A DNA stretch of 64,000 nucleotides, taken from positions 4,588,001 through 4,652,000 of the forward strand of contig OX442314.1 of NCBI GenBank assembly GCA_949358305.1, read 5' to 3'. The translations under genes and the position numbers were made by a program. This DNA comes from Strigamia acuminata. Its lineage: Eukaryota. Under the pieces are notes generated by a model. It made no database searches, was not told where the DNA came from, and saw nothing but the letters and a program-made list of their open reading frames with translations. Positions 3,441 to 48,552 of this stretch are shown one piece after another; position 1 is the stretch's first letter; each line of letters opens with the position of its first letter.

Positions 3441-3782
3441 TCGTTTTCTTTTTCGCGTCGAAAAAGAAATTGTTTCGGCTAGAAAGAATTAATAAATTAT
3501 ATTAAATATATTTATCGAATTTTTCTTTCAGAAAAATAACTTACACTTTGTAGATTCGCAAAAAACTGTCGTGTTATAACGCACTCGACGCATCCACTTT
3601 GGAAACTATTGAGAAAGTGGCTAAGTTCGTTGATTGGAGAAACGAACTTGTTTCGGTGACACCGAATGACGCCACAAATTATAACGCATTGTGAACGTTG
3701 TCGTTCGAGTGTGAACTACGAATGACGTCACGAGATTGCTCTCTCGGATCTTTTGGGTAAACCCAAAAGGTGAAAGTCAACA

Positions 3783-14882: not shown

Positions 14883-14901
14883 AATCTCGGTGGGACCTCC
14901 A
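14883..14901 (-). promoter_or_regulatory. Primer binding site of element C, tRNA-Gln
   Basis: TGGAGGTCCCACCGAGATT, complementary to the tRNA-Gln 3' end (AATCTCGGTGGGACCT-CCA). Confidence 0.9.
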
Positions 14902-14903
14902 CG

Positions 14904-16817
14904 TGTGACGGTGACGACCACAACTCCCATTTAACAATGGTACCGGGAAGAGATCGCAATAAATAAACAGTGAATACAATACGAGATAAATACAAGACAG
15001 TTTATTGTTGGCAAACAATATGGATGAGCTAAATTATACATAGGACTAATGCCGACATTTGGCAAGTTAAATCAGCTATTAAACTATACAAAGAATTGGC
15101 CAACTGGCCCTAGAATAATATCACTACGGGTCTGGAATATGGGAGCGGTTTCCCCATCGCTCGACCTGATTATAGATGTCATCTTAAGCCGGATGGCTGT
15201 GTCCTGGAGTCCGATACGGCTTCGCTGGTTTCCTTGGTTCGCTGTGTAAACTATCGCACGTCGATAAATCGAATGATCTGAGCATTGCGGTTGACTTTGT
15301 CTGCACCGCCACAACTTTGGGAGGATATTGGTGTAAGTAAATGTATTCATTTACTTATCAATATTCCACTTATGAATTATATTTAATTCATATCGTTGTG
15401 AATTCTTATTTAGATATTTCGGGAATAAGTTGTCGTCAACTTATCGGTTATATTGAGTTCAATATGAGATTAAGTCTTCTGACTTGATTTTGGTCCAACT
15501 GGTTGTCGAGTTTAAGTTTTTCTGTTATAAATAAAATGAAGATTAAGCTTCCCGTCGCAACACACAATTGCCATCGATTAGAATATACGCCTTGCCATGC
15601 AGAACGGTATCAAGCGTCCCCGGCGTCGCAGCACGGTCGTCCATCGAGTGGTTGACGGTACCACGTACACAGGGGTCGATAGCTCGCGGCTCCGCACAGC
15701 AGTTTTATCTCTCGCGGTACTAATAATAGACCGACTGCTTTGGCATCGAATACCATGAGAATCAGCTTGCCAAACACTTGGTGCTACTCGTGGTTACTGT
15801 AAAACAGACTGCTTTGGCACCATCAGGTGAAGGAACCGATTCTCAACAATACCGATGCTACTCGTGGTAACGGAATACGTTCATACCGAAAAAGACAACT
15901 TGGTCCTGTCCGGAGGATACTGAATTGCACAACGGCGGGTTCTCCTTCGGCGTCGCAACCGTAGACTGTAACATTTATGCAACATAATAATCCCAGCACT
16001 TCGACTTCAATTGCCGGCGGTGGCATGATTCTGTAGAATCATGCAACGGTTCTTTGCGAATAAATCAACAAAGAACCAAAAGGTTTTTTACGTGAACAAC
16101 GAATCATATTTCTTAAGTAACAATACCAAACAGAAAATAATCAAACAGAGCTGCGGAATGGCCGATTGTTTGGGTTTATATAACCTGACTGGATTTAAGG
16201 ATTAATCCAGTCATCCAATTGGAACATGGGTTCCACGAATCCCTCCAATCCCGTATCACCGGAAGTGGATACGGAGGAGCATTTATGCAAATTATGCTAA
16301 TCCTTGTTACAACCGGAACTGGATACCCAGGACCGGAAATGGGTTCCACCAATCAGATTGATCGGTTGACCGATTGATCGCTAAACATTCTGTCCCGCAG
16401 AAATGGAAGTTACATTGTATTTAACAATGTCAGATACTTAATATATATTTATATTAATATTTAACACAATTTATTCACTTGATTAAATATACGTTTATAT
16501 TTAATCATGAGGTTTTCAAGTTCGTATTCGAATTTATCGCTAATTGCGATCGCGCCATCTAGTGGCAATATGGAGCATTGACAAATGCGGGTTTTAGCAG
16601 ACGAATCTTCGTAATTATGCCGTGATACTTTAGTATCATGTGGAAATTAGTGTTTATTCTTAATAAACGAACATCTTTGTATTTGAAACATCATAAATGA
16701 CTTTATTCTAGACATTTATCAGTTTTACACAGAATATTGTAAAAAATACCATCATATTGGCGCAACAGCGCTTTCTTGATAGAAAATAGGCATTTATAGC
16801 CATTGTAAACCGTCATA
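14904..16817 (-). repeat. 5' LTR of element C
   Basis: Sense termini TATGACGG...CCGTCACA, followed by CG and the PBS. Confidence 0.97.
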
Positions 16818-17470
16818 GTATTACGATGAACGGATGACGTAACGTGCCATGTGTCCATCGAAATGAAAGATGGATGGTTCCATCTGGAGTGACTTCTTCA
16901 CTTGCCGTCGTAACTCTGACACCAGGTCCGATAGGTTGTAGATATTTTTCTAGACCTAATTGATTAATAACTGAAGTGGCTAGGAAGCTCTTATTCGCTC
17001 CTGAGTCCAACATCCCAGTTATTACACCTTTTAACGTTTCTAACTTTAACGTCGGGAGGTCTTGGCTGTTTGGTATTCCAGCCAGTTTGCACTCAAACTT
17101 GCGCAAATTATGATGAGTTGTAATTGGAGGCTCCAAAGGCAATTCATCTAATAACTCATTGGTATCAAGAGTTGTAGCTGCAAATAACTTAATGCACTCC
17201 TCAATTCCAGGTGTCTCTGGAACTGAGCTTGGTCTATTATCTGTAATTTCGACTTTATCTTGAATGTTGGAAGTGTCTTCTTCAGTCGGAGTTTCGCCGA
17301 CAATCTCCTTTTTTAACTCAAGAGATTCTTTTTCTTTTAGTTCTGTTTGACGAATTAATTCATCAATAACTTCTCCAACATCTTCCATTATCTTCAGATT
17401 TTCATTCTCTGATTCCGATTTCGGAGGTGACGCAGCGTCCACTAGACCTGATGAATCTGCGTCTACAAGT
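16818..17470 (-). pseudogene. pol: Pol of element A, protease part (5' of the nested insertion)
   Basis: Aspartic protease motif MLDSGANKSF. The frame continues across the GTAT target duplication into 7388 (..PFIVI|PNKYPMVLLGCDF). Confidence 0.9.
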
Positions 17471-20400
17471 TTTTTCGAAACATGTCAGTTATGATCTTGA
17501 CTGCTTTTTCAAACTCAGCTGTTGACACTGGTTTGTCCTTTTTAGAGGAAGGGCAGTCTTTTTGCCAATGCCCTAATTTTTTGCATAAATTGCATGGATC
17601 AGTGGCAGGCGATTTCTTTTTTGTTGCTGCTGGTGAGGCAGAACGAGAACGAGCGTCAGACCGGCGCTCAGGCGACACCGCAGGTGACTTTGAATTCCTT
17701 TCGGTATTCACCTTTGATGCGTCAAATGAAACATTTTTTGGTTTCATTCTTGGCTTCCATTTGCCTGCAACGGGGTTATTTTTTGCTAATAACGCCGCTG
17801 CTTTGGCCAATAAAGCCAACGTCTCGTCTCCTGCTTCCTCCTCCTCTTCAGCTTCTTCAGCGTCAGACGGCGGAGTTTCAGCTCCAGTTATATTTGCATG
17901 TAACTTAGGGACTGAATGAGGATTTTTGACGTCCTTTTTGGAAGATTCTGTTTTCAAACTCTTCCCTTCCACCTCGTCTAGAAAGTCTTCGTAACTAGGT
18001 GGCTGCAACAATTTCAAACCATTAAAGGTTTCATTGTTTTGCTCAGCGAGTCTTTTCTCTCGCTTTAAGTACGCTGACCTTTCGGTATCTGTAAGGTAAG
18101 CTTTATACTTTTCGTCAATGCGCAATTGATTGACTTCCATGAACTCGTTTAACTCGGAGAATTTCCCCGGGTCGGGAGCGTCCGACATCATCAGAATATT
18201 TTTACTATATTCTGTGAGACCAGCTCTAAACTGATCATCTGCTGTTGCATCAGTGACAGCGTGTGGCATTCTGCCAAGCAGATTCTCTGCTCTTAGCATG
18301 TACGAATGTAAGCTTTCGCCTTTTCGTTGCTTAAGACATCGCCAGAGCGTCTTGATGTCTTCGCTCGATTCACCAAATTTAAACATAAATTGTTTAACGA
18401 AGTCATCCCACTTCGTGAAGTCTTTCCTGCGAAACCACTCCTTGACATCGCCAACCAGTATTCTTGGTACTAGATGGGCCAATGCACCTTCACAGCTAAA
18501 GCTATGAACTTTGCCTAGTTCGAATATTTCCAACAAGAGGTTTGACCCTGCTTGCCAACTTCCATTATAGGCATGTGGGATAACTCGATCCCATCTAATG
18601 AACTTTTCATCTGTTGTTTGATGAGTCCATTTATCAGAAGTAAATTCATTTATTTTTTGCAAAATAATTTTATCCCTTCTGTTTTTTCGCTGTTGTTGAG
18701 CATTTTGCCTCAACAACTGGTCAATCTCATCTTTCGTGTAGAAATCGGGTCTTTGAGTTCTACTACGTGTTCTATGACGAGATCGCCCTCTCACACTGGG
18801 GTGTGAGGAATCTGTATCTGACGCAGATTCATGATTCGGATTTGGCGGCGGATCAGGGTCCGGAGGATCGTCGCCATCTGGCGGACGACGGTCTCCATTT
18901 GGTGGTCCCCTTCCACCTCGATTGCCATTCGAATTGTGGTCACGTGAGTGGCCACCTCCATGTCCATCTGAACTGTCTCCACCTGGTGGGTCACCACCTA
19001 GTGGATTTCCACGGTATCTCGGCCCATCACGGATGTCGTTGTGACAATCGCGTTTCGGTGAGCCTTCTCGCGGATTATCGTGTGACCGTCCACGATCGTG
19101 TGGTTTCTCACGTTCTTTATTCTTCCTCTCTAGCAATCCAATTAATCGGTCACTATTGCTAAAGAATCGATCCGAATCTTGTGGAACTTTTGGGGAATGA
19201 TATTCGGTCGGGTCTGGTTGTCGCTTTCGCTTTTTGCGACTGTGATGACTATTACGGCTTCCACGACTACTGCGTGAGTTATCACTGTCAGTCCAGCTTG
19301 ATTGTCGACTGACTTTTGGTTTAGCTGATGTTAAATCAATCAACTCAGGTGATTTGGAAGCACCTTTTTGCAAAACTGGGGCTGGCTTTGCAAAATTATC
19401 TTCGCCGCAAACGTCTTGTACTTTTTGTACGACTACTGCAAAGTTCTCTTGTACCGTCAATAGATCTGCGCGAAGAATTTCGTTTTCACGAGCTTGCATA
19501 GCTAAGTCGGCACGTAATAACTGCTCTGCAGTGCTTTGACTTTTGGCGGCTTGACCAGCATCAATTACAGACTGCTGTCGAGCGAGAAATACTTCATTTT
19601 CTCGTTGTGCTAATCTCTTAGCTCTTGCTGCTTGCTCTGCAGCATAATTCTCGTAATTTCGAGAACATGAGGGGATTGCTTCCCTCGCTCGAACTGGGGC
19701 GGTTAGTTCGGCAGTCATTAAATTTGTGTTGGCTTCTCGCAAATTTGCGTTAGCCAATCTCAAATTTTCATTAGCAATTTCTAAATCTTTTTGTGCTTGA
19801 TTTAGTTGCTCGAGCCTTTGTTGTTGCTCTTCGTCAGTAATTAGCCAGGAAGCTTTTTCCTGCTCTAAATGTAACAACTTAACATGATCATTCGCACGTT
19901 GTTGTTTTAGTTTGGCATTTTGCTGCTGCATTTCTGCATGCATTCGCTCGAACTCTGCTTGTAAGCTTGTTCTGACGATTTCAACGTCTTTTTGGCTTTG
20001 TTTGCGAACCATAGCTTTGTGGATTTGTTCCACAGTCATTTCGCTAGTGACTTTTACTCCCTCGAGCCTAGCTTGCTCACGGAGCGCGTCCATCATGGTA
20101 ACACGCACGGGAGAATGAGAAACTTCCATATTGAAATTCTCAGAATCTTGATGTGCTGCACCTTGAACTGGTGATGAATTCAGCGAGTGCTCTGCACTTG
20201 ATGATTGAATTCGTAAATTCAAATCATCATTTTGCGACTTGGAACGGCCACTTCCAGTTGGATTATTTAAGTCCAACTGGCCGCTTGGCGGGGATGGCTG
20301 TTGTCGCTCCAACGCTTGCGTGAATTCATTCACGATTAACTGTGCCGAGTTACAGTTAGCTGTTTGATCCATGGCTTCAAACAGTTCTTGTGACTCAGTC

Positions 20401-20486
20401 ACTTCTTGATCCACGGCTGGTAGATCGATCGCCACTCGTCTCTTCGCCGGCCTTCCTCTCGGTCTCTTCTCTGAAGGAGTCGCCAT
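17463..20486 (-). CDS. gag: Gag of element A (1007 aa)
   Basis: Coiled-coil-like N-terminus, capsid-like 'VKEWF..WDDFVKQF..LKQRKGESLHSY', zinc knuckle CNLCKKLGHWQKDC, slippery heptamer AAAAAAC at 17475-17469. Confidence 0.92.
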   Translation of the reverse strand: MATPSEKRPRGRPAKRRVAIDLPAVDQEVTESQELFEAMDQTANCNSAQLIVNEFTQALERQQPSPPSGQLDLNNPTGSGRSKSQNDDLNLRIQSSSAEHSLNSSPVQGAAHQDSENFNMEVSHSPVRVTMMDALREQARLEGVKVTSEMTVEQIHKAMVRKQSQKDVEIVRTSLQAEFERMHAEMQQQNAKLKQQRANDHVKLLHLEQEKASWLITDEEQQQRLEQLNQAQKDLEIANENLRLANANLREANTNLMTAELTAPVRAREAIPSCSRNYENYAAEQAARAKRLAQRENEVFLARQQSVIDAGQAAKSQSTAEQLLRADLAMQARENEILRADLLTVQENFAVVVQKVQDVCGEDNFAKPAPVLQKGASKSPELIDLTSAKPKVSRQSSWTDSDNSRSSRGSRNSHHSRKKRKRQPDPTEYHSPKVPQDSDRFFSNSDRLIGLLERKNKEREKPHDRGRSHDNPREGSPKRDCHNDIRDGPRYRGNPLGGDPPGGDSSDGHGGGHSRDHNSNGNRGGRGPPNGDRRPPDGDDPPDPDPPPNPNHESASDTDSSHPSVRGRSRHRTRSRTQRPDFYTKDEIDQLLRQNAQQQRKNRRDKIILQKINEFTSDKWTHQTTDEKFIRWDRVIPHAYNGSWQAGSNLLLEIFELGKVHSFSCEGALAHLVPRILVGDVKEWFRRKDFTKWDDFVKQFMFKFGESSEDIKTLWRCLKQRKGESLHSYMLRAENLLGRMPHAVTDATADDQFRAGLTEYSKNILMMSDAPDPGKFSELNEFMEVNQLRIDEKYKAYLTDTERSAYLKREKRLAEQNNETFNGLKLLQPPSYEDFLDEVEGKSLKTESSKKDVKNPHSVPKLHANITGAETPPSDAEEAEEEEEAGDETLALLAKAAALLAKNNPVAGKWKPRMKPKNVSFDASKVNTERNSKSPAVSPERRSDARSRSASPAATKKKSPATDPCNLCKKLGHWQKDCPSSKKDKPVSTAEFEKAVKIITDMFRKNL

Positions 20487-20599: not shown

Positions 20600-21563
20600 T
20601 GCTGCGATCCGGGTTATTATCGCACTTATTTCTAATAAATAAGCACGAAACCGCAGGTGAATGCTACTTGAGACTTATATCGCGGCCTTAAATTATCTAG
20701 GGTTAAGTTTAAGGAAATAAAAAGACAGTTTATAGTATAAAAATCACAAATATATGTTTATTCGGTTTAATACAATAAAATATGATGAAAATGACTAGTT
20801 AAAATAATACAATGGCGACAAGTCGCTGAATAATGGAGTAGGAAACAAAGGAAGGGCTTGCAACGACTGTTGCAAGCTACAAAGCGTCAGAAATGGCGCT
20901 TAAACAACACAATGTTGTTGAGCGAAGGCAAATGTCTTCGTTTACTGAACTCACGAACGATGGTCGAAGACGATGGTTCTCGTGGGCTCCTTCTACGGCT
21001 CGTGCGACGGCTCGGCGGCGGTGGTTGACGGCTGTAGGCGTCCGGCTCTCGTACGATGGCGGTGGCTGTCGTTCGCGCGGCAGCGACGGCGATGGTTCAC
21101 GATCGTCGGGAAACTTCTCGGTTACGATTGCTGGAATTAGCTTCGGCTAATTCAAGCAGGATAGCTGGCTTTGTAATTCGTTACAAAGCAAGCTGGTGAA
21201 ACTTGATGGTTACACGGTCCACTGTCAATACGTATTGTCGGAGCAGATATTGCAGTGATGTTGTGGGTTGTGTATTTTTGTCAAGAGTCCCGATTTGAGC
21301 CAAGGCGCGAGCCCAGAACGCTTCAATATTGCGCAGAAAACCTGCGCACTTAGCTCAAATGGGTGCAACTAGTGGTTATTACACCATATTGCACCATAAC
21401 GGCTAATAACCGTCTTCACCCCGGACAACCTGGGGTGATATGTGCCTAGAGAGGATTTCTCCCCTCGGTCACATGATCTGACTTGGCGTGTGCCACAGTC
21501 AAATTAATTAGAAGACAATTAATTTTATCTTCTAAGTTGGTGAAATATTTTGAGATCACCACA
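20600..21563 (-). repeat. 5' LTR of element A (about 964 bp)
   Basis: Minus strand starts TGTGGTGATC (element B LTR starts TGTGGTGATT) and ends ..GCAGCA, then CG and the PBS. Host sequence homologous to 53353 onward resumes at 21564. No second LTR is available to confirm the ends. Confidence 0.75.
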
Positions 21564-34795: not shown

Positions 34796-36762
34796 GTCTC
34801 AACAGTATCTTGCAATCCAAACCTTACAGTTGCGAACTGACAACTATCCCACTTGGTTAATAATTTTAATTATTTGCAATGTACAAAAATGTGCGTACTA
34901 TGCCTGAAATTATGCACACTCGTCATTTAAAAATGATCGAAATTTGCAATAGGGTCCAATTAATCACTTAACGTAGATATGACATCCCAAACGTAGCATA
35001 CACGTTCGAAAACGTACAATTTTAGCATCAAAAACAGTTTTTCTTTGCATCAAATTCTATTTTTGGGCCGAGAAGCCAATTAAACGCCTGTCTCAATGAT
35101 CGCCTTGGGGGTCGAGTGTTTAAAAAGATTAAACGTTTGGGCGTTTATTCGGAGCTATTTACACTATTTTTGCTACATTTGAGTTCACAGGTTGACACCA
35201 GTTACACCTTTTAACATCATGTTAAGTGTAACAAGTATTGATAATTGTGTATCATACACCTCTCATTTCTAGCAATTTATATTGAAATTTTATCATTCAC
35301 AACATTTAAAAATATAAATTTACCACCCTTTTATCAAAAATAAACTTTAAATTTGTCTTCATTCGTGTAATTGGATTATTAAAATTGGTTTATATTGCTC
35401 GTATTCTGTCAATCAATTTTTCCTTTTGTCGCCTACATATTTAATCTCGATACTGTGTCAGTCGGGGTCGAGGGAAAAAGAAATAATTCATTTTTATCCC
35501 TCTAAATTCTAATTCCATTGGTTTACAGAGATCTTTGGTATTCGTCCACCAAACTTAATTCGTACACCAATAATAATGTACTTACCGCGAACAGGGAAAG
35601 TGTAGTAGCAATATAAATTTCTTGACGATTAAATAAAAATAAGTCACAATTCACAGCGCGGCGAAGCAACCGCTGATGTGCTTTTCCGCCGCCATTGTCC
35701 TCTGACCTCGTTTTCGTCAATCATCGTCCCGCAAAAATGGAGACTTTCGTTGACCTTTTTCTTTGCTCTTTTTATCAGAAAATAATAACAAAAATAATGA
35801 GAAAAATTGTTTTAACCAAAAAATTTGCTTTGATTCGGTTGGTGACTCGAGAAACGCGGAAACCGAGTCGTTGACTTTGTTTACTCGCCACTAGATGGCA
35901 GTCGCGAAACCTAAAAATTTAGCCAAGACAACTCAACTGCAAAAGGTTTGTAGCCGGTCACTGGCAACAGACATCTACATGGCCTAGCTCAACCCCACCC
36001 TGCCAGAAAGAGTTGATGGTTTTGAAATAATGATCCCACTATCATCAACCAAGATTCAAGAACAGGAGATTCTGGCTGATTTTATACATGGAACCAAGTG
36101 GGTATATCATCTAATTTTCTACGTTGTCTTTTATTACAACTCTTTTTTTTCCACATACACACTATACAAATCAATTTATTTTATTTTGTTTCGCCATTTC
36201 GGAAAGGATGGTCTATTTAAGGAAGCTTCAATTAATCCAGTCACGCATTTTTGTGGATTTTTGAACGTCTCTCACAAATGTATGTACAAAACATGAAGAA
36301 AACGTGATACAGTAGAAACGGAAGTTTTTGGTTCTGAATGCAAGAACCAAGAAAGATTTACACTTCACAAATGAGAATTTGGAGTTAACTGATGTATTTT
36401 ATTAGCGAAAGAATTAAAAGGTTGCCTAGGAAATGCTAGGCAACCTAACAATGTACATAAATAGAGTACTATTTAGATCTCAGATTATTTAGTAACAATA
36501 TGTAAAATGGTGGTTAAGATAAACAACAAAAACATGATAAAGACATGATAGAAACCTGACATAAACGTGATAGAACCATGACCAAGATGTGATCGAAATG
36601 TGATCAAATGTGACTAAAACTTGACTTTTTTGGATAAAATCCAATTCAATCAATTGGAACTTAACCTCATAGCCTGTTCACACCAAAATTTTGGATCTCG
36701 TCCTCATCTTCAGTGAAAAGCTATTTTTTTTAATTCACGCTTTGAAAGTGCGCATTGAAGAT

Positions 36763-37393
36763 TGTGGTGATTCGGCATCACCTGAAGAAGTAATTAGCGG
36801 TGATTATTGTGTTACTAATACTCGCCACTAGAGCGCGCTAGAAATACCGACTAGACTGACTAGTCTCGTGTTTCTGCGAACCTGCATAATCGGAAGGATT
36901 TGCATATGACGTCATTTCCGGTTAGTATATAACGCCGATACTTGACCGGAAACGACACTACAGTTACCACATTTCAGCAAGAGCACCATTTACCTCACCT
37001 TTCAGGCCGTTTCACGGATTGATCGAGGACCGGTGCCCGCTGACCATCTCAACTGTACAACAGCCACATTTATTTAGCGTAGCCAATCTACGCTAGAATA
37101 AATATTCGAACGATATTCGTTTAATTCGCACGAGAAAGCGAATTCTCGCGTGTTCATAATAACACGTGGAAATACCCTAGACAACAAACATAGACCACGC
37201 GTAGGACTAAACAATTGGATCCGCCATTGTTTAGCGGCAACTCGTATTCGCAGCCGAATCCGAGGACCAACACAGAAAACATCTTGACTTATATTTGTAT
37301 TAGTAAGCGTGTTTTAATAAAGCAGTATTTGAAATATATTGTATTCCCGAGTGTATTATTTATTATCTTTAACCACAAAGTCGAATCACGACA
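36763..37393 (+). repeat. 5' LTR of element B
   Basis: Repeat of 47922-48552. Contains ATTTGCAT, TGACGTCA, TTTCCGG and TATATAA at 36898-36932. Confidence 0.97.
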
Positions 37394-37395
37394 CG

Positions 37396-37413
37396 TGGGG
37401 GCCTGTCCGGGAT
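37396..37413 (+). promoter_or_regulatory. Primer binding site of element B, tRNA-Pro-like
   Basis: TGGGGGCCTGTCCGGGAT, 2 nt after the LTR end. Confidence 0.88.
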
Positions 37414-37485
37414 AGATTTGCTAACCTTAAGACAATACTTTAAATAATAACCGGGATCTTTCGATCGATCATTATATCGTAAGAA

Positions 37486-40332
37486 ATGACAAAAACTACC
37501 GCAGAAGATAGAAAAAGGCGTAACGACGAAAAGGATAGAAAAGAAGCCGAAGAAATCGAACGCCAAAAAGCGGAAGAAGCGAACCACGTGGAACCAGAAG
37601 TCGAGACTAACTCGACTAAAGTTTCAACGGAATCATCAAGTGAAAGCCTTCCCCTTGCAAGACAACTTCCGTTTACGGGAGGCGAATTCGAAGGATCAGG
37701 AAGCTCTCACGAAGAAAACGGACTAAATAAATCGTTCGAAAACCCTCGATTCGGATTGAAAAGCCCAAGACCTGTCGAAAAGGATCCCAGTGAAATGGAT
37801 CTAATGACTCTTCTAAATAAAGCGGCAAACACAAGTGCCGCAATGATCAACGAGGCTGCCCGCGCAGACCAAGCAAGAACAGTCGCGTTAGAGAAGAAGA
37901 AAAACGAATTGATGGAAGATTTAGCCAGAGAGCATCGCGAGAAATTAGCTGCCATGGAACAGAGCTTGGCACAAGAACACCAAGCTAAACAAATGGCACT
38001 GGAGCGCGAGCTGGCTCGAGAATTGCTCGCGAAGCAGAAAATAATCGAACGAGAAATGGCAAAGGACTGCCAGATCCGGCCGCCAAGCAACGGGTTAAGC
38101 CAGCATTCGGAGCCAAACTCCGTACAGAGCTCCCCAGAACGGTCTCACACAGCTAAGGAGCTGGTAGCCAAAGCAATAGAAGTAACTCGGGTAGCTTGCG
38201 CACACGGCATCGAGATCGACCAGGACAAGGATCCCTACGCAGAGCTAAGCCGAGTAATCGACCTAGTAAATCAGAGGACTGAAAAACGATCGGCAGATAA
38301 CACGGCCAGACGCGGAGAGAAACGACGTCGGGTCGGAGCAGATCGACAACAGTCCGAGACAGGCGGCGAAGCAACGTCAGACAGCGAAAGTATCGACTCT
38401 CAAGCATCTCACGGCAGTATCCGAGTCAACGGACTAGATAGCATCTTGAACGAATCGGACGAAGTCAAAGGAGAACTGTACGAGGCGTTTATACAAGATA
38501 GGAGGAATAATCAGGGCGCGCAATCATGGGCAATAAAAAACTCATTCGCAATGAAAACTGGCCAAACCAGTAATAACAACCCAGGCGACCCTAACGCAGA
38601 ACTAATCAGATGTATAAATCAGAAGAATCAAATACGCAACGAAGTAGGTCAAAATAAACTGGCCATGCCGACGCTCGAGGAGATTAACGCAGTTAAAAAT
38701 CACCTCGAAAAGAAACACGCCGCCGAAGCGTATGCTGGGAGAGATTCCTACGTTTTTATCAAAAAAACGAACGAAGGCCTCACGGGGACCCGACTGGACG
38801 ATCTGATACCGCCCGGAACAAAGTTGAGCCAAACCTCCGCTCCAGAGAAAGCGAACCCAGATAACTCAACCATAGCGCAAGACCTCACGAATAACCCGAA
38901 CACCGCGGGATCATCAGGGAAAACGTCGTTCCAACACAATCAGTTCGGACTGACGGGCAACGGTACGCATTACCCAAGCCTCCCTTCCGACAATCCACGA
39001 TCATCACCGCTGCTTAGTGAGACTGACTCGCTAAGCAACCAACTACGGACGATGAGAGACGAACTCCTTCAGGCCATGGACCAAAAGCTTCAACAAAGCC
39101 GTGGCCAAGAGACCGAGGAGGACGATCGAAGCGAAGGATTGTTGAAACGTTACTCCGCAGACCGATGGCTGTATTCTCGCAAGGATAACAACATCAAGTG
39201 GACGACCCTGAGACTAATTAAGTTCGACGGATCCTGGAACGCCGGCAACTTGTTTTTGGACGAAGTCGCCCTGACGATTAATCGCTTAGGAGCGGAACCC
39301 GACGAAATGGTTGCACGCGGAATACCAGAAATGCTGATCAACCGGGCCCGAAACTGGTACGCTGATGTCCAACCCCGAAACTGGGAAGATTTCGTCATAA
39401 AGTTCCACAATCAATATGGCGAGACGAGCCAAGAAATCCAGAAAAGAGTAAGCTCTATGAAGCAAGCTCCCGGGGAAACTCTGAGGGAATACGTACAACG
39501 AGCCGACAGCCTGTTCCGTGAAATGGACAAACCATTTGACCAACACGCTCAGAAAGCTCTCTTCGAACAAGGACTAAACGAAACCGCAACCAAAGTCCTA
39601 CGAGAAATGAACGCTCCTAAGGGGGATAATTTCAAAGCCATCCTAGCTTTCGTCGAGAAGAAACACACCGAAGTAAATGCTCGGTATAACGAAAATCTGA
39701 CAAAAGAAGAGCGAGCTCTAGGAGTGGCCCGACAGCAACGAATACAGGAGCGCAGCATAGACTCCACTAAGCTGCTCCAATCGCGAAATTATCTAAACGG
39801 AAGTATAGAGCCACTCCCCTCAAAGAAAAACCAACAAGCTTCTAACCCTTTACCACCTCCGAGTAAGGCCTATCGCACGCAAACTAACGCCGCCGAGGAA
39901 AAGTCGGAAGACGAAGTAAGCGAAGACTCTGAGCAATTCTCGGAAAGCGATGAGGCTGACGAAGGTATCAACGATGTGGTACACGCAAACATGGGGAAGG
40001 AACTGGCGCCCAGCTACCGACCTCAGATGAAGTCCAGAAAATCGGAACACCACAACCCGAAAACAGAGGCGACTTCCGAGAAGAAGGACTACCCCAAAAA
40101 ACCTTTTGAGCGGGAGGGAAAGAAGAAAAGCCCTTGTAATTTCTGTAACGAAGACGGCCACTGGCGTCAGGCCTGCCCAAAACTGGCAAAGAAAAAAGCC
40201 GACGACAAGGCCGCAGAGCGTGAGGAGCTAGTGAAATTGCTCGCGAAGGAACAAGACAAAATCTTGAAGGAACTCACCGCCAAACTCGACAGTATGACAA
40301 AAAACTGGAACTCGCGGGCGGAACAAAAGTGA
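37486..40332 (+). CDS. gag: Gag of element B (948 aa)
   Basis: Capsid-like 'ARNWY..WEDFVIKF..MKQAPGETLREY', zinc knuckle CNFCNEDGHWRQAC. Homologous to Gag A. Confidence 0.93.
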   Translation: MTKTTAEDRKRRNDEKDRKEAEEIERQKAEEANHVEPEVETNSTKVSTESSSESLPLARQLPFTGGEFEGSGSSHEENGLNKSFENPRFGLKSPRPVEKDPSEMDLMTLLNKAANTSAAMINEAARADQARTVALEKKKNELMEDLAREHREKLAAMEQSLAQEHQAKQMALERELARELLAKQKIIEREMAKDCQIRPPSNGLSQHSEPNSVQSSPERSHTAKELVAKAIEVTRVACAHGIEIDQDKDPYAELSRVIDLVNQRTEKRSADNTARRGEKRRRVGADRQQSETGGEATSDSESIDSQASHGSIRVNGLDSILNESDEVKGELYEAFIQDRRNNQGAQSWAIKNSFAMKTGQTSNNNPGDPNAELIRCINQKNQIRNEVGQNKLAMPTLEEINAVKNHLEKKHAAEAYAGRDSYVFIKKTNEGLTGTRLDDLIPPGTKLSQTSAPEKANPDNSTIAQDLTNNPNTAGSSGKTSFQHNQFGLTGNGTHYPSLPSDNPRSSPLLSETDSLSNQLRTMRDELLQAMDQKLQQSRGQETEEDDRSEGLLKRYSADRWLYSRKDNNIKWTTLRLIKFDGSWNAGNLFLDEVALTINRLGAEPDEMVARGIPEMLINRARNWYADVQPRNWEDFVIKFHNQYGETSQEIQKRVSSMKQAPGETLREYVQRADSLFREMDKPFDQHAQKALFEQGLNETATKVLREMNAPKGDNFKAILAFVEKKHTEVNARYNENLTKEERALGVARQQRIQERSIDSTKLLQSRNYLNGSIEPLPSKKNQQASNPLPPPSKAYRTQTNAAEEKSEDEVSEDSEQFSESDEADEGINDVVHANMGKELAPSYRPQMKSRKSEHHNPKTEATSEKKDYPKKPFEREGKKKSPCNFCNEDGHWRQACPKLAKKKADDKAAEREELVKLLAKEQDKILKELTAKLDSMTKNWNSRAEQK

Positions 40333-43300
40333 TTCCACATCCGCTCGCGATAACTTCGAAAACGATGGACCTTACTCTGGTGGAAAAACAAATTAAAGAA
40401 ATGGAAAAATTGTTGGAATTCTTCGAGGAAGCTGCCAACGAGGAAGTCACAACTCCAACCAAAAAACGGAAATTCGAAATTAGAGACGAAGACGGTATAG
40501 CCAACGCTTTCATGACTTTGCCGCTTGACCAAGGGGCCAATCCTCTTAAAAAGCGAATACTTCGTTGCAACCTATCAACAGAAGCGAAGAGCGTACTGGC
40601 TAAAATACCAGTCTCTTTCGGCAAAAAGGTGTTAATGGGACTACTCGACTCGGGAGCGGATCAGTCGTTTATCTCCACCGACTTATTCGAATCACTCGAA
40701 GAAAAAATACAGAAAAAATTACGGGGAATGAACGAGAACATTCGAGTTCTTACAGCAGCGGGAGAAGTTAGAGCAGTGGGGACGTTATCAACCGATTTTG
40801 TATGGGAAGGAGGCACGATTAAGCATTTCTTCATCGTGTTACCAACCCGAGACACAATCCTGCTGATAGGAATGGATTTGATGGAACGGATGAACATCCA
40901 GCCCAACCCAGTCACACGTTCGTGGAATTACATCGACAACCACGAGGACCCACGACTACCCATAATACCTCCGGAACTCCTAGACAAAGCTAAGGACGAC
41001 GAGGAATGGGGAGGAGGCGAAATTAAGAAGTTCATCCAAGACTATAATTTTAAGTCGTTTAATACTATCCTCCAAGAGGAGAATTTAATACATAATCTGG
41101 CCATGGACGCCAATCTTGGAGAAGAACAAACGAAACTCCTCGAGGAAATGCTCAAGAAGCACTCGAAGAACTTAAATAAAGATCCAGGAAAGACTAGTTA
41201 CGTAATGCACGAGATCGAATTGGTTACGGGAAAACCGGTGCGAGTACCTTTTAAAACTATGAATCCCCAAAAGAGACATATCGTAAGAACGATGTGCAAC
41301 GAGTTGCTCGAAAAAGGGATCGTGTCGCACGCCATCGGAGAATATGGAATGAGGATTGTCCTCGTCATGCGACCAGGCTCCGAACCGCGCCTCTGCATCG
41401 ATTATAGACCTTTAAACGCCATAACCGTCATCGACCCCATCCAAATGCCGTCAATAGAAGCGATTCTACGGGAGCTCGCCCCATTTAACTGGGTCACGAC
41501 CATGGACTTGTCCAAGGGTTACTGGCAGGTTGAATTGCGGGAAGAGGATAAAGAGAAAACAGCTTTTTGGGCACCACAGGGTCGACTGATGTTTAATGTA
41601 ATGCCCTTCGGGTTAGTAAACGCACCCGCCACCTTTCAAAAACTAATAGAAAAAGTTCTCGGCGATGCCTTACACAAATACGCATGGGCTTACCTCGATG
41701 ATATAGTCATAGTCTCCCAAACTTTTGAAGACCACCTGATACACGTGAATGACGTCATGGAGCGACTCACAAAAGCCGGTCTAAACATTCATCCAGGGAA
41801 AAGTAAATTTTGCCGCAAAGAATTGGCATTCCTGGGTTACACAGTCGGAACAGGTGGCCTATCCATCGACCCGAAAAAGACCCAGGCGATTAGCCAGTTC
41901 CCCGCCCCGGAAGATGTAAAAGGAGTCCAACGTTTCATGGGCATGGTGAATTTCTTCAATCGATTGCTCCCAAATTTGGCAGACGTCGCGGCACCCATCA
42001 CAGATCTGTTACGCAACGATAAAGATTTCGAGTGGACTGACCACTGCGAAACATCGTTTAACAAGATAAAACAAATGCTGATCGATGTAAAACGAATTCC
42101 CCTACCAGATCTTAATCGAGAATTCACTCTTCACACCGACGCCAGTCGAATTGGCCTAGGTGCTGCGTTGCTTCAAAAGCATGACATCGACGGAGTAGTG
42201 TTAGAGGTCCCGACGATGTTCATCAGCCGGAAATTACAAGCAGCCGAAAAGAATTATAATGCGACAGAGTTAGAATGTCTAGCCGTCGTCTGGGCAATCC
42301 GAAAATTCAGACCATACCTGGAATTTACCAAGTTCAACGTACAAACTGACCACGAAGCACTAAAGTGGTTAATGGCGTTGAAGGAACCGTCCGGAAGAAT
42401 GGCTCGCTGGCAGCTAGAATTAATGGCTTGTGACTTAATCATTGAATACCGACCCGGAAAATTCAACGTCGTGGCAGACGCCCTCTCACGAGCCCCAGCT
42501 TCAGACCCCGAAGACGAGACCGACTGCGGAGAGGACGACTCACGCCTCTTCTACTGTCCGAACCCCGTCCGAAAATGGGAATTTAAAAAGCTAAACGAAT
42601 TACCCAAGGAGAAACTCGAGTCAGGAGACCAAAATTATTACAATTATTGGCTCCGAGCATACCAGTCTGTCAAGGACGCTCACCCAAATTACGAGCTAAC
42701 GATAGAACCTCGAATCTCCGACAAGTACGTTCGAGCATTCGTCGCCCACGTAAGCAAGGGGACGAATAGTAAGCCGCCCACCAGGGACGAATTAATAGCC
42801 GCCCAGATGACAGACGACTTCTGTAAAACTTATCGAAACTTCATCACAGATAAAAAATTTCCCGACGAGAATTTCGACGAAATCCAACGCGAAGAATTCG
42901 AAAGAGAAGCCTCCACGTACTTAATCGAGGATGGACTTCTACTAAAACACCACCCGAATTTCCGCGATGATCTGACGGAGACGGGAACTTCGATGAAAGT
43001 CGTTATACCCAGGAGTCTGCTGACAAGGTTTCTGTGGATGGTCCACGGACACCCGCTCGCCGGACATTCTGGAGTGGCCAGAACGATCTACCGAGCAAAT
43101 CAACTTTATTTCTGGCCAAAAATGACCCGAGATATCGTTCGTTTTATTCATCACTGCCCCAGATGCCAAGCGTGCAAGCCGAGGACGCCCAAGAGCTACG
43201 AGAGAATCTCACTTGGCCCTTTCGCACCCTTCGATTGCTGGAGCGTGGATTTAATGGGCCCAAAGCCCACGTCATCCAATAAAAACAAATATATATTAGT

Positions 43301-44411
43301 AATCATGGATGTCGCGACTGGATGGCCCGAACTCTTTCCAATGGAGAGACCAACTAAGCAAAAAATCATTCGATGTTTGTACGAAGTGGCGCTTCATTTT
43401 GGATTCCCTCGAAAATTAATCTCCGATAATGGACCACAATTCGCGTCAAATTTGTACAAAGACTTCTGTAAAAAATTCGACATCGAGACATCATATACAT
43501 CAACCTATAATCCACGGGCCAATCCCGTCGAAAGGTTAAATCGCGATATAAAATATGCACTAGCAATTTTCACCGATGTTCACTCCAGCTGGGACGAATA
43601 TCTTCGTGAAATTGCCTTCAGCATCCGCACAACGATCTCAAGGAACCGCAAATTTTCTCCCGCGTTTCTAAACTTCGCTCGGGAACTCAGAGTACCCTGG
43701 GACCCACGAATACCGGAGGAAATACTGGAAATTGATCCTGAGAAGCCTCATATTTATGTCGACAGACTGGAGCAAATAATTTCGGCCACTTATCAGCACA
43801 TGATGTCACACATATTCGACATGAGAGATCGTATTAGCATTGCTGGAAAGGATCGGCCCTTCTGCAATTTTAAAGTCAATGACCTCGTCTGGAAAGACAC
43901 ACATATTCAGTCCAGCGCCGATAAGGGGATCCACGCAGGCTTAGCAGACAAACGCGACGGCCCGTACGTCATACTCGAAGCCCACGGCGGAAACGCTTTC
44001 AAGCTAAAAAGATTGGCAGATAACGTTAATTTTAGATCGATCCACGCCCGAGAATTAACTCCATACTTACCTGAGTTTCCTCAAGAGGCTTGGACGGAAT
44101 ATCAGACGAAACCAGCGCAAAATCCAATTATTCGCGACATGTTTTTAGATGAACAAACTGGCCCAACCAATTTAGTTCAAGATGAGTCACACGAAGCGGC
44201 CGACGCCCCGGATGAGATTTCGGAGAGGGAGGAAATAGTCGAAGAATCTCCTAAAAAAGGAAAGCAATCAAACAAAAATAAGACTACAAGAATCCTCAAA
44301 CCTGATAAAATATACGGTATGCGTCGACACAAGCCAAACCCGTTCATAAAAGACGGGAAACTCGTCGGAAAACAAAAAGCGACTCCGGCCATTGTCTCAA
44401 ACAATCGATAA
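40299..44411 (+). CDS. pol: Pol of element B (PR-RT-RH-IN), entered by -1 frameshift at AAAAAAC 40299-40305
   Basis: LLDSGADQSF, YLDD, TDAS, HHCC, SDNGPQF, GPY motif; uninterrupted 1360-aa ORF. Confidence 0.97.
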   Translation, partial: KKLELAGGTKVIPHPLAITSKTMDLTLVEKQIKEMEKLLEFFEEAANEEVTTPTKKRKFEIRDEDGIANAFMTLPLDQGANPLKKRILRCNLSTEAKSVLAKIPVSFGKKVLMGLLDSGADQSFISTDLFESLEEKIQKKLRGMNENIRVLTAAGEVRAVGTLSTDFVWEGGTIKHFFIVLPTRDTILLIGMDLMERMNIQPNPVTRSWNYIDNHEDPRLPIIPPELLDKAKDDEEWGGGEIKKFIQDYNFKSFNTILQEENLIHNLAMDANLGEEQTKLLEEMLKKHSKNLNKDPGKTSYVMHEIELVTGKPVRVPFKTMNPQKRHIVRTMCNELLEKGIVSHAIGEYGMRIVLVMRPGSEPRLCIDYRPLNAITVIDPIQMPSIEAILRELAPFNWVTTMDLSKGYWQVELREEDKEKTAFWAPQGRLMFNVMPFGLVNAPATFQKLIEKVLGDALHKYAWAYLDDIVIVSQTFEDHLIHVNDVMERLTKAGLNIHPGKSKFCRKELAFLGYTVGTGGLSIDPKKTQAISQFPAPEDVKGVQRFMGMVNFFNRLLPNLADVAAPITDLLRNDKDFEWTDHCETSFNKIKQMLIDVKRIPLPDLNREFTLHTDASRIGLGAALLQKHDIDGVVLEVPTMFISRKLQAAEKNYNATELECLAVVWAIRKFRPYLEFTKFNVQTDHEALKWLMALKEPSGRMARWQLELMACDLIIEYRPGKFNVVADALSRAPASDPEDETDCGEDDSRLFYCPNPVRKWEFKKLNELPKEKLESGDQNYYNYWLRAYQSVKDAHPNYELTIEPRISDKYVRAFVAHVSKGTNSKPPTRDELIAAQMTDDFCKTYRNFITDKKFPDENFDEIQREEFEREASTYLIEDGLLLKHHPNFRDDLTETGTSMKVVIPRSLLTRFLWMVHGHPLAGHSGVARTIYRANQLYFWPKMTRDIVRFIHHCPRCQACKPRTPKSYERISLGPFAPFDCWSVDLMGPKPTSSNKNKYILVIMDVATGWPELFPMERPTKQKIIRCLYEVALHFGFPRKLISDNGPQFASNLYKDFCKKFDIETSYTSTYNPRANPVERLNRDIKYALAIFTDVHSSWDEYLREIAFSIRTTISRNRKFSPAFLNFARELRVPWDPRIPEEILEIDPEKPHIYVDRLEQIISATYQHMMSHIFDMRDRISIAGKDRPFCNFKVNDLVWKDTHIQSSADKGIHAGLADKRDGPYVILEAHGGNAFKLKRLADNVNFRSIHARELTPYLPEFPQEAWTEYQTKPAQNPIIRDMFLDEQTGPTNLVQDESHEAADAPDEISEREEIVEESPKKGKQSNKNKTTRILKPDKIYGMRRHKPNPFIKDGKLVGKQKATPAIVSNNR

Positions 44412-44596
44412 AAACAACCACAGGGGGGACACCTGTTACGTCCCACAATGCGTCTTAATTGGCCAAACCAATCAAAGATGACATGAGACTAATAGTTAAC
44501 CTCTAACCCGACCCACATTTATCACTGTCATCTCCGACTAAGCGACGATCACCTCGAGGCAGCCGTAAATCAAAGTATCAAATTAATTTCCGAAAA

Positions 44597-47500
44597 ATGA
44601 AAAGAAATGATTGGAAGAAAGAAATTGAACGGGCCGTAAACAACGCTTCCGAGGATGACGATGAAGATCAAGTGGATTTGTTACAAATCATTGTAAACAA
44701 CGAAGAGGGAAATTGGGACGAACCCAATGAACCCGATGTCCAACCCGACGTAAGTAAAAAAAAAAAAAAAAAAATAGAAAAAATTCAAGTATCGATAATC
44801 AAAAATACGAAATAAGTTCGTGGACTGACCACAAACGAAAAAATAATTTAACTTTAAGTGACAAATTATCAAAATTAATCAAATACCGAAAGAAAAATTA
44901 ACTTCAAAACACGTGGTCGAAAAGCACATGGCCGACCATGACGCCATCTTGTGTTAGACGAAAGAATCTCTACAAAAATATGACAAATTAATCAACGATC
45001 CTAATATATTTATTAATATTCTAATATTTAGGACGGATATCGCACTACGTGGGGGCAAATCGACCCGAAAAGAGTTTCCGCAGGCAGCTTATGGCGCGAA
45101 GTAATCCCCATACTGTTCCGACAAGCGCTCGAAGAAGCGGTCGACTTTGAACCATGGAAAATTCGCCTTTTATTGTCCCGTGCGATCAGCCGCTACTGGT
45201 CCAGCCAGCAAACGTTGATCCACTACATGCCGCGCCAATATCAAGCAGCTTTACGGGCAGTTATCTCGAGAAATATGGACCCGCCAGCGCCAATCCCGAA
45301 TCCACTAATCCGAGCCGCCTTTCCTGACGACCAGCGAGGATGGGACGTTTACGAACAATGGCGCGACGCCGAAACAGATGAAGAAAAACACCAGATCCAT
45401 ATGGCATATTACGAAGAAGTAAGGCGGACCGCACATGACGAGGTTTTCAATTATCTACAGCCGGACGGTTACTCGACCGAGGAAATCAGGTTTTGGCTCC
45501 TTCAGATCCGCGAAGACCGGCCCGACCGCCCAGATTGGAGACCGAGACACGGTTTCATCACCTCGCAACGAGCAATGCATCAATTGCATTTTTTGGGCTT
45601 CTTTGGTCGCAAACGCCAGAAAGCCGAGAAACGTCTCTCCAACGAGCACGACGAAGCAGGCTGCTCAGCGAAGAAACAATGCCTGGACAAGCCAAGCACT
45701 TCCAGCAGCGCGCAGAATAAGAAACCCGCGACAGAGAAACGCCTGGCCAAACCAAGCGCTCTCTCTCGCCTGGGAAAGACGGAGGCCCCACAAACATCGC
45801 GATTTCAATCCAGGGACGCCCCGTCAACCAGCCGAAGAAGAGAAAATGTGCGCGAACGCCCCGACCGTCGAGAGGATCAACGCAGACGCGATAGGAACCA
45901 AGAAAATTGGGACGATTATCGTAGAAATTACTTCCGACGGCGGGAAGAAAACAAGGAATCCTGGAATAGACATCGAGAGGAGTTCCTACGCGAACGTGAT
46001 GAGAAAGCCCGACGTGAACGAGAGAACCTCCGGTTACAGGACGAACGAAGAAGGAGAGGATCGGAGAGTCGCGCACGTTCATGGAAAGCGTATCGCGAAG
46101 AGGAATTACGACAGCGAGATAGGAGACGCTGTGAAGTCATCAAATCGATTTGGGACAGTCCCGAACCGATGAAGATTGACGACGAAGTGATTATCGACGA
46201 GGTCCCCGAGCAGAAGAAGATGTATACTCAGGCGGATCTCCTCGCGGTGGTTATGAAATACCAACAAATGCAGCCGAAACCAGTCTACCGCCCGACCCCC
46301 TCGACCGCCTCGAGTCTAGAGACGGCGCCAAGTGCTTTCATCAAGCCGGAACTCTCACAGACGAGAAGCGTAACATCCAGCGTCAGCCTCCCAAGCGCCT
46401 TTCGCAAGAAAGTGATAATCGGCGCACCGACACTGAGTTCTGAAGAACAACTCAGACATCGAGAAGCTCGCTTTGGACCGACCAAAGTCGAACCTCTCCC
46501 AACTATCCCCGAAGCCTCAACTTCAACGAGAACTCCAATCGTTTGGGACAAGCCCGAACCGGAAAAATCAAGACGTCTGGTCAGATCTGTGCCTCAGCCA
46601 ACGACATCCACGGGACCCAATCCGATGTTGCCAGCCCCAGCAGTCATCCAAGCCTCGACTCCAATCAACCCTTCGGAGGTAACGTTGCAACAGTTTCTGG
46701 AGGTAACGACCGTGGAGCAAGCTAGAGCGCTTTTGTGCGAGATGGACTCCTACCAACAAAACGTGATCCAAAACGTCATCACGAACCTTCAGCGGATCTC
46801 AATTGAATATACGCAGAACAAAAATCGGGATCATCCAAATTGGAATACGAGGATCGTGGTTGCCATTACCGACTTGATGTCGATTTTGCTGGCCGCCGCC
46901 ACCTTCCGAAACGCACGTGTTGCTGTAGCAGCCTGGATCGTGGTGGCCCACGAGGGTTTCCAAGTTCCGCCGGCTCTCGTAGACAGCTGGACACGTCTGG
47001 TGCCCTCTGCGGCAGTAATTCGAGCCCAAATGGTGGCCCAGGACCCGGATCCAGAGGCCTCCTACCAGAACGTTCGAGCGATAATTCAACGCTCGCTCCC
47101 GTCACCTTCGGCGGCCACGCCAACCGCAGAGGCTCCGGTTCCCAGGGATCCGACGCCTCCTCCTCCGCCTCCGCCGAGGGAGAAGGGACCCTCCGAGCCA
47201 CTGGCCGAACCAGTCCCGCTCAAGAAGAAGGAACCCAAGAAAAAGATGCTCCTCCCAAAGTCGAGCAAGAAGGTTCCAAAGACGACAGAGCCTCAAATCG
47301 CCGCCAGACTCAGGATGTACTTCCCAGGGTTGTCCTTTACGAAGGACACGGAGGCAAAACTACTCCAGTCTCCAGATCGTGGCTATTCTCTTTACGTCTG
47401 GATGAAGGACGCTATCGAAGCCGGAGCCGGAGGCGAGCGCTTCATCCAACATCAACGACTACTCCGAGCCCATCGCGCACCAACCAGCATCGCCGAGGCC

Positions 47501-47722
47501 CAAAGAATCCACCACACCAATCAAGGTATGTCGGCCTTCCTGCCACCAATTTGGGCCCACGAACGAACGGGAAATCCGCTGGAAGCGCCGGGACACCTAC
47601 GTTTCTACTTGAATGAGAGCGAAGACCCCTCGGACTACTCTTCAAGACTGACCACATCTCCCAACCTGGACGAACCAAGTTCGGAAGATAAGCCGAGTTA
47701 TGCCGATAACTTGAAGAAATAA
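44597..47722 (+). CDS. ORF3 of element B, unknown function, predicted spliced (44597-44749 + 45032-47722, about 947 aa)
   Basis: Acidic 51-codon exon ends GAC|GTAAGT. Acceptor ttctaatatttag|GAC opens a stop-free frame that runs into the 849-aa ORF. Confidence 0.85.
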
Positions 47723-47921
47723 GTAATTAGAAATCGTGACGAGAAGACTGTCTTCTCCAAACTAGGAAATTATTATTATTTGTTTGCGTATCAATTATTT
47801 AAGAATGTAAAATATTTTATGCACCATTCATCATCATTTAAATAAAAAGATTATTTTATGATTAGATATTGTTCCTCCTTTTATTTAAGGGACCCCGATG
47901 ATTTATTCTCGGGGAGGGACG

Positions 47922-48552
47922 TGTGGTGATTCGGCATCACCTGAAGAAGTAATTAGCGGTGATTATTGTGTTACTAATACTCGCCACTAGAGCGCGCTAG
48001 AAATACCGACTAGACTGACTAGTCTCGTGTTTCTGCGAACCTGCATAATCGGAAGGATTTGCATATGACGTCATTTCCGGTTAGTATATAACGCCGATAC
48101 TTGACCGGAAACGACACTACAGTTACCACATTTCAGCAAGAGCACCATTTACCTCACCTTTCAGGCCGTTTCACGGATTGATCGAGGACCGGTGCCCGCT
48201 GACCATCTCAACTGTACAACAGCCACATTTATTTAGCGTAGCCAATCTACGCTAGAATAAATATTCGAACGATATTCGTTTAATTCGCACGAGAAAGCGA
48301 ATTCTCGCGTGTTCATAATAACACGTGGAAATACCCTAGACAACAAACATAGACCACGCGTAGGACTAAACAATTGGATCCGCCATTGTTTAGCGGCAAC
48401 TCGTATTCGCAGCCGAATCCGAGGACCAACACAGGAAACATCTTGACTTATATTTGTATTAGTAAGCGTGTTTTAATAAAGCAGTATTTGAAATATATTG
48501 TATTCCCGAGTGTATTATTTATTATCTTTAACCACAAAGTCGAATCACGACA
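47922..48552 (+). repeat. 3' LTR of element B
   Basis: Offset 11159 from the 5' LTR, preceded by the PPT. Confidence 0.97.

Follow-up and report, generated by a model that had tools for sequence, protein, structure and literature searches.

ORF3, a probable non-Env accessory gene of two sister Ty3/gypsy elements in Strigamia acuminata

Third open reading frames (ORFs) that do not encode an envelope protein (Env) are an already described kind of gene in long terminal repeat (LTR) retrotransposons, represented by CERV, by the ORF3s of bdelloids and by the extra ORFs of plants. CERV belongs to Cer1, a Ty3/gypsy element of Caenorhabditis elegans in which an ORF that does not encode Env takes up the env slot; it is made from a spliced mRNA, is nuclear and is needed for the export of genomic RNA (PMC10309623). 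It has 517 amino acids (aa), first exons shared with gag, a Cys-loop M domain (C4 finger) and a G-protein-like domain (PMC10309623). We analyzed ORF3, a gene that follows pol in two related Ty3/gypsy elements, A and B, lying within 64,000 nucleotides (nt) of the Strigamia acuminata genome (assembly GCA_949358305.1, contig OX442314.1, positions 4,588,001 to 4,652,000; this whole stretch is hereafter the window). ORF3 of element B (ORF3-B) is almost certainly a real, selected accessory gene that does not encode Env.

Other described systems differ in what occupies the third position. HIV-1 Rev and the export proteins of complex retroviruses act where genomic RNA that contains introns has to be exported, and most non-Env third ORFs lack a known function, according to the same source (PMC10309623). 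The F- and gB-type Env proteins of errantiviruses have conserved Cys bridges and an ectodomain that is flanked by a signal peptide and a transmembrane (TM) domain (PMC13524379). The ORF3s of the bdelloid elements Juno and Vesta encode DEDDy exonucleases, GDSL esterases, TM or coiled-coil proteins (PMC5408684), and the extra ORFs of Retand encode antisense TRP28 proteins (PMC11963269). Osvaldo-like elements are 10-12 kb long and have one or two ORFs, LTRs of 997-2055 bp, a tRNA-Lys primer-binding site (PBS) and mostly a 4-bp target-site duplication (PMC3286476). CERV is the sole export accessory protein of a gypsy element that we found in the open-access literature; how LTR retrotransposons export intron-containing genomic RNA, and which roles orphan third ORFs play, are largely open questions.

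Predicted ORF3 gene structure and purifying selection

Positions 36763-48552 on the + strand are occupied by element B, a Ty3/gypsy element that is intact and was inserted recently (Table 1). It has LTRs with TG...CA ends, a target-site duplication, a PBS, a polypurine tract (PPT), gag, and a pol with protease (PR), reverse transcriptase (RT), RNase H (RH) and integrase (IN) in that order, all of which place it in Ty3/gypsy. Only one base differs between its two LTRs (631 bp each). Contigs of both public runs, which come from one study, contain a flank-to-flank joint (36757-48552) that skips 11794 nt, corresponding to element B plus 4 bp. Both runs thus contain the empty site, which makes the insertion either young or polymorphic. 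Summed contig depth, which is not a measure of copy number, suggests that element B is present in many copies. We take its PBS to be tRNA-Pro-like. A 2-nt spacer between the end of the 5' LTR and the PBS is common to elements A and B and to a third element, C (20599-20598, 37394-37395 and 14903-14902, respectively).

A preliminary description of this DNA had reported a long ORF after pol in both elements. Such ORFs are indeed present, with 896 codons in B (45032-47722, + strand) and 714 in A (3081-937, - strand), and the longest ORFs in 1000 base shuffles reached just 255 and 266 codons, respectively. However, positions 44597-47722, which had been read as one ORF, are instead composed of a predicted 51-codon exon, a predicted 282-nt intron and the 896-codon exon. 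The upstream ATG frame ends precisely where the 11.8-kb sense strand of B has its sole GTAAGT. The predicted introns have a GC content of 27% (B) and 31% (A), and the corresponding values for exon 2 are 54% and 58%. Within exon 2, no Met precedes codon 66 (B) or codon 243 (A). The ORF3 of both elements is thus predicted from sequence to be spliced, with its own short acidic first exon and a separate mRNA. GTRAG donors occur also upstream of gag and inside gag, and splicing of ORF3 from the LTR leader, with a donor at 37479, or from gag is a possible alternative source. None of the five listed joints of DNA contigs matches the intron, which is no evidence either way.

A non-coding 17-mer that follows the pol stop is shared by the two elements. 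Its 10-mer core is found just twice in the window and 35 of 2000 shuffles gave an equally good match, which lends modest support to a conserved cis element. The ORF3 introns (3196-3256 on the - strand and 44910-44950) also contain what we take to be E-box and YY1-like motifs, and the intron of A a presumed RFX X-box-like palindrome. We did not retain these motifs as evidence because they are too common (21 CACGTG and nine YY1-like sites in the window).

To measure selection, we used variants in the contigs of the same two runs placed on positions 44420-47900, and considered the best-supported 40 of 333, which represent the common variants of family B only. Three of them lie in the intron and 37 in exon 2. 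Of the latter, 30 are synonymous and none introduces a stop, whereas 32% synonymous variants would be expected given the mutation spectrum of these variants (P = 1e-9, with a pN/pS of about 0.11). In the two shifted frames, 5 of 37 and 0 of 37 are synonymous, and on these counts we rejected the overlapping ORFs at 45423-46172 and 46807-47616 as selected genes. This excess of synonymous variants indicates that the ORF3-B protein is under purifying selection. With 3 of 4 listed gag variants and 7 of 10 listed pol variants being synonymous, the strength of selection on ORF3-B is about equal to that on gag and pol. Among the 12 indels listed out of 23, exon 2 contains four, which compensate each other in two pairs, and exon 1 contains one, 3 nt long, while indels of 1, 2, 5 and 7 nt fall outside the coding parts. 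A single low-depth contig skips 70 nt of exon 2.

These data bear on whether ORF3 could be an Env or fusogen that is decayed or no longer recognisable, or else a host gene carried as a passenger and not used by the element. Such an origin would fit the env slot, the predicted splicing, as for env, and the presence of R-x-[KR]-R patterns (two in B, one in A). However, the pN/pS speaks against a passenger, all R-x-[KR]-R patterns sit inside Arg-rich tracts, and there is no Pfam match and, with the poor models available, no viral fold match. The N-terminus is acidic, Cys residues are scarce and scattered (4 in 896 aa of B and 5 in 707 aa of A, exon 2), and each protein has one N-glycosylation sequon. 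The preliminary description had seen no Env features in either protein. A Kyte-Doolittle scan, which is not a dedicated TM predictor, likewise returned no signal peptide and no C-terminal TM anchor, the true C-terminus of A being missing. It did return one internal hydrophobic 19-mer in B (maximum 1.84, aa 608-626) with no counterpart in A (maximum 1.11). Overall, the Env or passenger origin is largely refuted and we consider it highly improbable. The earlier proposal of a selected non-Env accessory protein is supported by the variation among B copies and by the lack of Env features and matches.

Table 1. Positions of the features of elements B and A within the window
Feature	Position	Strand	Remarks
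Element B, target-site duplication	36759..36762	+	4 bp; repeat at 48553-48556
Element B, 5' LTR	36763..37393	+	631 bp, TG...CA ends
Element B, PBS	37396..37413	+	nearly identical to element A PBS
Element B, gag	37486..40332	+	948 aa, Retrotrans_gag domain, CCHC knuckle
Element B, pol	40224..44411	+	PR-RT-RH-IN order, intact; overlaps gag in a different frame
Element B, 17-mer after pol stop	44444..44460	+	non-coding; 15/17 bases same as A; candidate cis element of ORF3 transcription unit
ORF3-B, predicted exon 1	44597..44749	+	51 codons from ATG 44597, acidic, no signal peptide
ORF3-B, predicted phase-0 intron	44750..45031	+	282 nt, 27% GC, GTAAGT...CTAAT...TAG, in-frame stops
ORF3-B, exon 2	45032..47722	+	896 codons
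ORF3-B, Arg/Glu-rich segment	45824..46141	+	aa 265-370, 34% Arg
ORF3-B, predicted C-terminal helical domain	47309..47536	+	shared with A; downstream of poly-Pro and Lys-rich linker
Element B, PPT	47911..47919	+	
Element B, 3' LTR	47922..48552	+	
Element A, 5' LTR	20600..21497	-	~898 bp, single copy in window
Element A, PBS	20597-20580	-	
Element A, gag	17463..20486	-	homologous to B gag (z 35, 0/200 shuffles)
Element A, pol	3783..17484	-	disrupted by element C (7389-16817) and by in-frame stops (7338-7340, 5178-5180)
Element A, 17-mer after pol stop	3677..3693	-	copy of the B 17-mer
ORF3-A, predicted leader intron	3479..3544	-	66 nt
ORF3-A, predicted exon 1	3351..3440	-	30 codons, acidic
ORF3-A, predicted phase-0 intron	3082..3350	-	269 nt, 31% GC, GTAAAT...CTAAT...TAG
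ORF3-A, exon 2	959..3081	-	707 open codons to breakpoint (ORF 3081-937 is 714 codons)
Duplication breakpoint cutting ORF3-A	1..958	.	100% copy of 22520-23477

Kinship of the two elements and probable kinship of their third genes

Elements A and B share 62% identity in RT-RNaseH, while the best other protein reaches 46%. In a FastTree phylogeny they are sisters with a support of 100 on a stem of 0.44, and their nearest neighbour is P0005. The tree was composed of 119 rows, namely 116 of the 120 listed matches (four were omitted for short RT-RNaseH coverage), A, B and a further gypsy element of the window, D, with no named reference elements. The 17-row clade around A and B includes clusters with tick (Rhipicephalus) members, which is compatible with an arthropod host and no demonstration of one. 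No relatives of A and B with flanking DNA were found in viral contigs, and metagenome contigs returned only three distant loci with 29-30% identity and no ORF longer than 200 aa. The linkage between ORF3 and this clade is therefore known from A and B alone. Judged by RT-RNaseH, A and B form a distinct long-branch Ty3/gypsy lineage, plausibly undescribed, and no description of the lineage or of the ORF3 protein was found in the open-access literature outside Repbase and GyDB. The possibly undescribed complex group proposed in the preliminary description is plausible; its third gene belongs to a kind already described.

Element A is damaged. Its ORF3 (ORF3-A) is severed at 958/959, the last residues and the stop being supplied by flanking DNA, and no 3' LTR of A was found within the window. 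The identical 958-bp repeats at 1-958 and 22520-23477 most simply mark a tandem-duplication breakpoint; they may stem from a recent tandem duplication or from an assembly artefact. We considered these repeats as LTRs of A and rejected them, as they have no TG start or PPT and the real LTR is at 20600-21497.

The five sequence blocks quoted in the preliminary description and the poly-Pro run occur in the same order in both ORF3 proteins (aa 19, 148, 383, 610, 635 and 680 of A; exon-2 aa 25, 175, 566, 709, 760 and 807 of B). Their colinearity stands, although most of the blocks are weak when taken alone. The alignment of the C-terminal domain of A with the whole of B scores 67 (z 7.4), a value that none of 1000 shuffles of B attains; with 161 pieces taken from unrelated pol proteins, the score never exceeds 44. 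Significance is marginal for the N-terminal region (z 2.2, 36/1000 shuffles) and absent for the EVLQKLDAYQ/ALLCEMDSYQ region (z 0.6, 252/1000). When A was divided into nine windows of 77 aa, only the poly-Pro and the C-terminal windows were matched by 0 of 300 shuffles. In these alignments, significant likeness is thus confined to the C-terminal ~75 aa. Over the whole length, the local score corresponds to z 6.0 (0/200 shuffles, 1/200 window shuffles).

We weighed whether the two ORF3s could be unrelated captures in the same slot, or proteins with one small domain in common, in which case ORF3 would be no fixed gene of the lineage. Consistent with this, BLASTP between the whole proteins gives E = 0.010, likeness in the N-terminal and middle blocks is weak or falls short of significance, the alignment z is 35 for gag and 6 for ORF3, and sequence searches returned no third member of ORF3. 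The GC content at third codon positions (GC3) also sets ORF3-A apart from its own gag and pol (0.62 versus 0.36-0.37), the gap being small in element B (0.57 versus 0.50-0.52). However, the C-terminal domain is significantly alike at the same place, with 0/161 real-protein controls; six blocks are colinear; and the first exon followed by a phase-0 intron, as well as the 17-mer, recur in both elements. The order of segments (helical, Arg-rich, Ser/Pro-rich, helical, poly-Pro/Lys, helical) is also alike. Because the C-terminal match coincides with the same slot, exon layout and segment order, the two ORF3s are very probably of common descent, and separate captures are improbable. Compared with pol, ORF3 has diverged far faster.

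Properties of the ORF3 protein and possible functions

The ORF3 proteins have a pI of 9.4-9.6 and about 10% Arg, with 12 Arg within aa 241-280 of A. Two single-sequence AlphaFold models were obtained, both with a mean pLDDT of 45.9. In the model of B, the sole long part with high confidence is a single charged helix of ~95 residues (aa 279-374, block pLDDT about 81-94). Both ORF3s are predicted to be soluble, helical and partly disordered, and in each an Arg-rich segment lies around aa 240-280.

Searches for relatives returned no known family. With ORF3-B as query, HMMER found no match among 1.84 billion representative proteins, and none of the 7993 candidates of a word-indexed search had E <= 0.001. 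A two-sequence profile of the C-terminal domain gave 1283 candidates among longer proteins, none at E <= 10. Pfam, run on the whole ORF3s and on six sub-domains, returned nothing beyond TetR_C_41 at E 0.053. NCBIfam had no match, and neither collection returned an exonuclease or SGNH esterase domain. The best match among PDB sequences had E 0.56, and searches of viral contigs with ORF3 and of the ESM Atlas with aa 540-896 of B and the whole of A were blank. Foldseek found nothing at E <= 0.001 in the viral and PDB sets, a result that excludes no fold given the poor models, and the best VIA-align hits (Z 7.7, rmsd 3.1, 91 aligned) are generic helical bundles that barely cover the C-terminal domain. 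Sequence, family and fold searches thus linked ORF3 to no known Env or accessory family, the models being poor. ORF3 appears to be a new orphan protein family.

Its position, its predicted splicing and its Arg-rich segment led us to infer that ORF3 may act in the nucleus as an RNA-binding regulator for the export of unspliced genomic RNA, as Rev and CERV do, a possibility that we favour tentatively. An intron in a retroelement would survive only if the packaged RNA is unspliced, and the element would therefore have to export RNA with strong splice sites. Genomic RNA would keep the ORF3 intron for transmission and leave the nucleus unspliced despite those sites, while the spliced ORF3 mRNA would take the normal export route. 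The ORF3 product would then re-enter the nucleus and bind the RNA of the element, with the structured LTR as one candidate site, and the bound protein would license export of the unspliced genomic RNA. In favour of this reading are the env-slot position in two sister elements, the selection among B copies, the basic Arg-rich nature of the protein and the lack of Env hallmarks.

As for the candidate binding site, the segment 36913-37212 of the B LTR folds at z -5.9, with 0 of 200 shuffles as good. Strong folding spans the first ~480 nt of the B LTR (36763-37240) and ~360 nt of the A LTR (21497-21140), where the first three 120-nt windows have a folding z of -3.5 to -4.3. An Rfam search with the B LTR fold returned no match, and ARAGORN was likewise blank.

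Several observations weigh against an export function. LTR structure is not specific, since z <= -3 was found in 12 of 98 windows along element B. The conserved part of ORF3 is the C-terminal domain; the Arg-rich segments of A and B have no significant alignment, and the Arg/Glu helix modelled in B may be a spacer or a single alpha-helix instead of an RNA-binding motif. ORF3-A has no nuclear localization signal-like pattern, and nuclear export signal-like patterns occur so often (10 in B, 4 in A) that they carry no weight. ORF3 has no CERV-like Cys cluster, and neither sequence searches nor, as far as the poor models allow, fold searches connect it with CERV, with Rev or with a family of RNA-binding proteins. 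Splicing is predicted and expression presumed, the models have a mean pLDDT of 45.9, and selection was measured in B alone, on the best 40 of 333 variants from two runs of one study. Finally, simple retroviruses are described as exporting unspliced RNA through RNA elements alone (PMC10309623).

The conserved C-terminal domain could instead point to a nuclear DNA- or chromatin-binding protein, a trans-activator or anti-silencing factor, in which this domain, by binding to DNA in the LTR or the interior of the element, would bring in host machinery so that the family stays transcribed. Compatible with this are a basic protein with an acidic N-terminal exon and disordered Ser/Pro tracts, whose compact helical C-terminal domain is the best conserved part, and the non-coding 17-mer common to A and B after pol. 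The TRP28 proteins of plant Retand elements have also been proposed as DNA binders (PMC11963269). However, Pfam, PDB sequences and NCBIfam returned no DNA-binding family, CtBP and LxCxE motifs are absent from both ORF3s and a PxVxL-like motif is found in A alone. In addition, such a factor would leave the export of genomic RNA with strong splice sites unexplained. Altogether, we regard it as somewhat unlikely.

The large disordered regions rich in Arg, Glu, Ser and Pro, together with the ~95-residue charged helix and the hydrophobic helix of B, would also suit a cytoplasmic scaffold or suppressor. Such a protein could condense with element RNA or Gag and shield them from piRNA/siRNA silencing, or move particles in or between germline cells with no fusogen. 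However, GW/WG motifs are rare (two in B, none in A), no late-domain motifs were found in either protein and the hydrophobic helix of B is unmatched in A. We consider this role unlikely.

If ORF3 is an export factor, Rev-like regulation would have arisen repeatedly in retrotransposons; an anti-silencing factor would be equally notable for an animal LTR element. A fuller version of the export reading is that an undescribed invertebrate Ty3/gypsy lineage has turned 'complex', through an intron-bearing regulatory gene in the env slot with its own transcription unit, which would encode a new ~950-aa export family with a different fold, independent of Rev and CERV. Taken as a whole, this is doubtful. 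Element B supplies what appears to be a new selected protein family in an intact, recent, multi-copy element, and the ORF3 mRNA, being predicted to be separately spliced, should be separable from gag and pol for testing.

The surrounding locus and comparison with described systems

The window is composed of nested LTR elements. Element C (7389-16817, - strand) is nested in the protease region of A and has 1914-bp identical LTRs, a 4-bp target-site duplication and a PBS with a repeated leader, which we take to be tRNA-Gln-like. It lacks gag and pol, and just one of its ORFs has at least 120 codons, an orphan (11403-9898, 501 codons) that contains an internal ~25-aa repeat and is preceded by CCAAT/TATA-like motifs. 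This ORF is unrelated to ORF3 and has no Pfam or NCBIfam match, and element C is a non-autonomous LTR element with an accessory-like gene alone. Element D (48560-53305, + strand) has short LTRs (154 bp, 97%) and a 5-bp target-site duplication; it sits 7 bp from the 3' LTR of B and is far from A and B in the tree.

Pfam identified pieces of amiloride-sensitive sodium channel (ASC) genes at 30464-31351 and 58090-58833, in duplicated blocks with 77-89% identity. A third piece (22210-22596, - strand) was recognized by eye and by an 87% DNA match to 53551-53975. The host locus has the appearance of a cluster of channel genes into which LTR elements have inserted. We also observed a 1-kb near-perfect palindrome (61004-62060, 97%) adjoining an integrase ORF (62420-63676), and two tandem arrays, at 25403-25934 (28-nt unit) and 34369-34828 (10/20-nt unit).

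Among described systems, element B resembles Osvaldo in its large size and 4-bp target-site duplication; it and A differ from Osvaldo in their LTRs of 631 and ~898 bp, their three genes and their presumably tRNA-Pro-like PBS. The gag-pol-ORF3 layout in a multi-copy invertebrate Ty3/gypsy element recalls errantiviruses, while none of the features of an Env ectodomain was found in ORF3. Unlike the bdelloid and Retand ORFs, ORF3 is in sense orientation, has a predicted intron and matches no enzyme or Pfam family. Rev is a small protein made from a spliced mRNA and has an Arg-rich helix. ORF3 would share with it a spliced mRNA, an Arg-rich helix, both predicted, and the same export problem, but it is large and has no homology to Rev. 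As in CERV, the ORF is not Env and lies in the env slot after pol. Unlike CERV, it is predicted to start with an exon of its own downstream of pol, encodes ~950 aa in B and is predicted to be all-helical with an Arg-rich segment. In place of the Cys loop of CERV there are four or five scattered Cys with no cluster, and in place of its G-protein-like domain the low-confidence models show helices only. Our searches found no sequence link between the two proteins, which are set apart here by description, the CERV sequence itself not having been compared. By analogy, ORF3 may work like CERV without being CERV.

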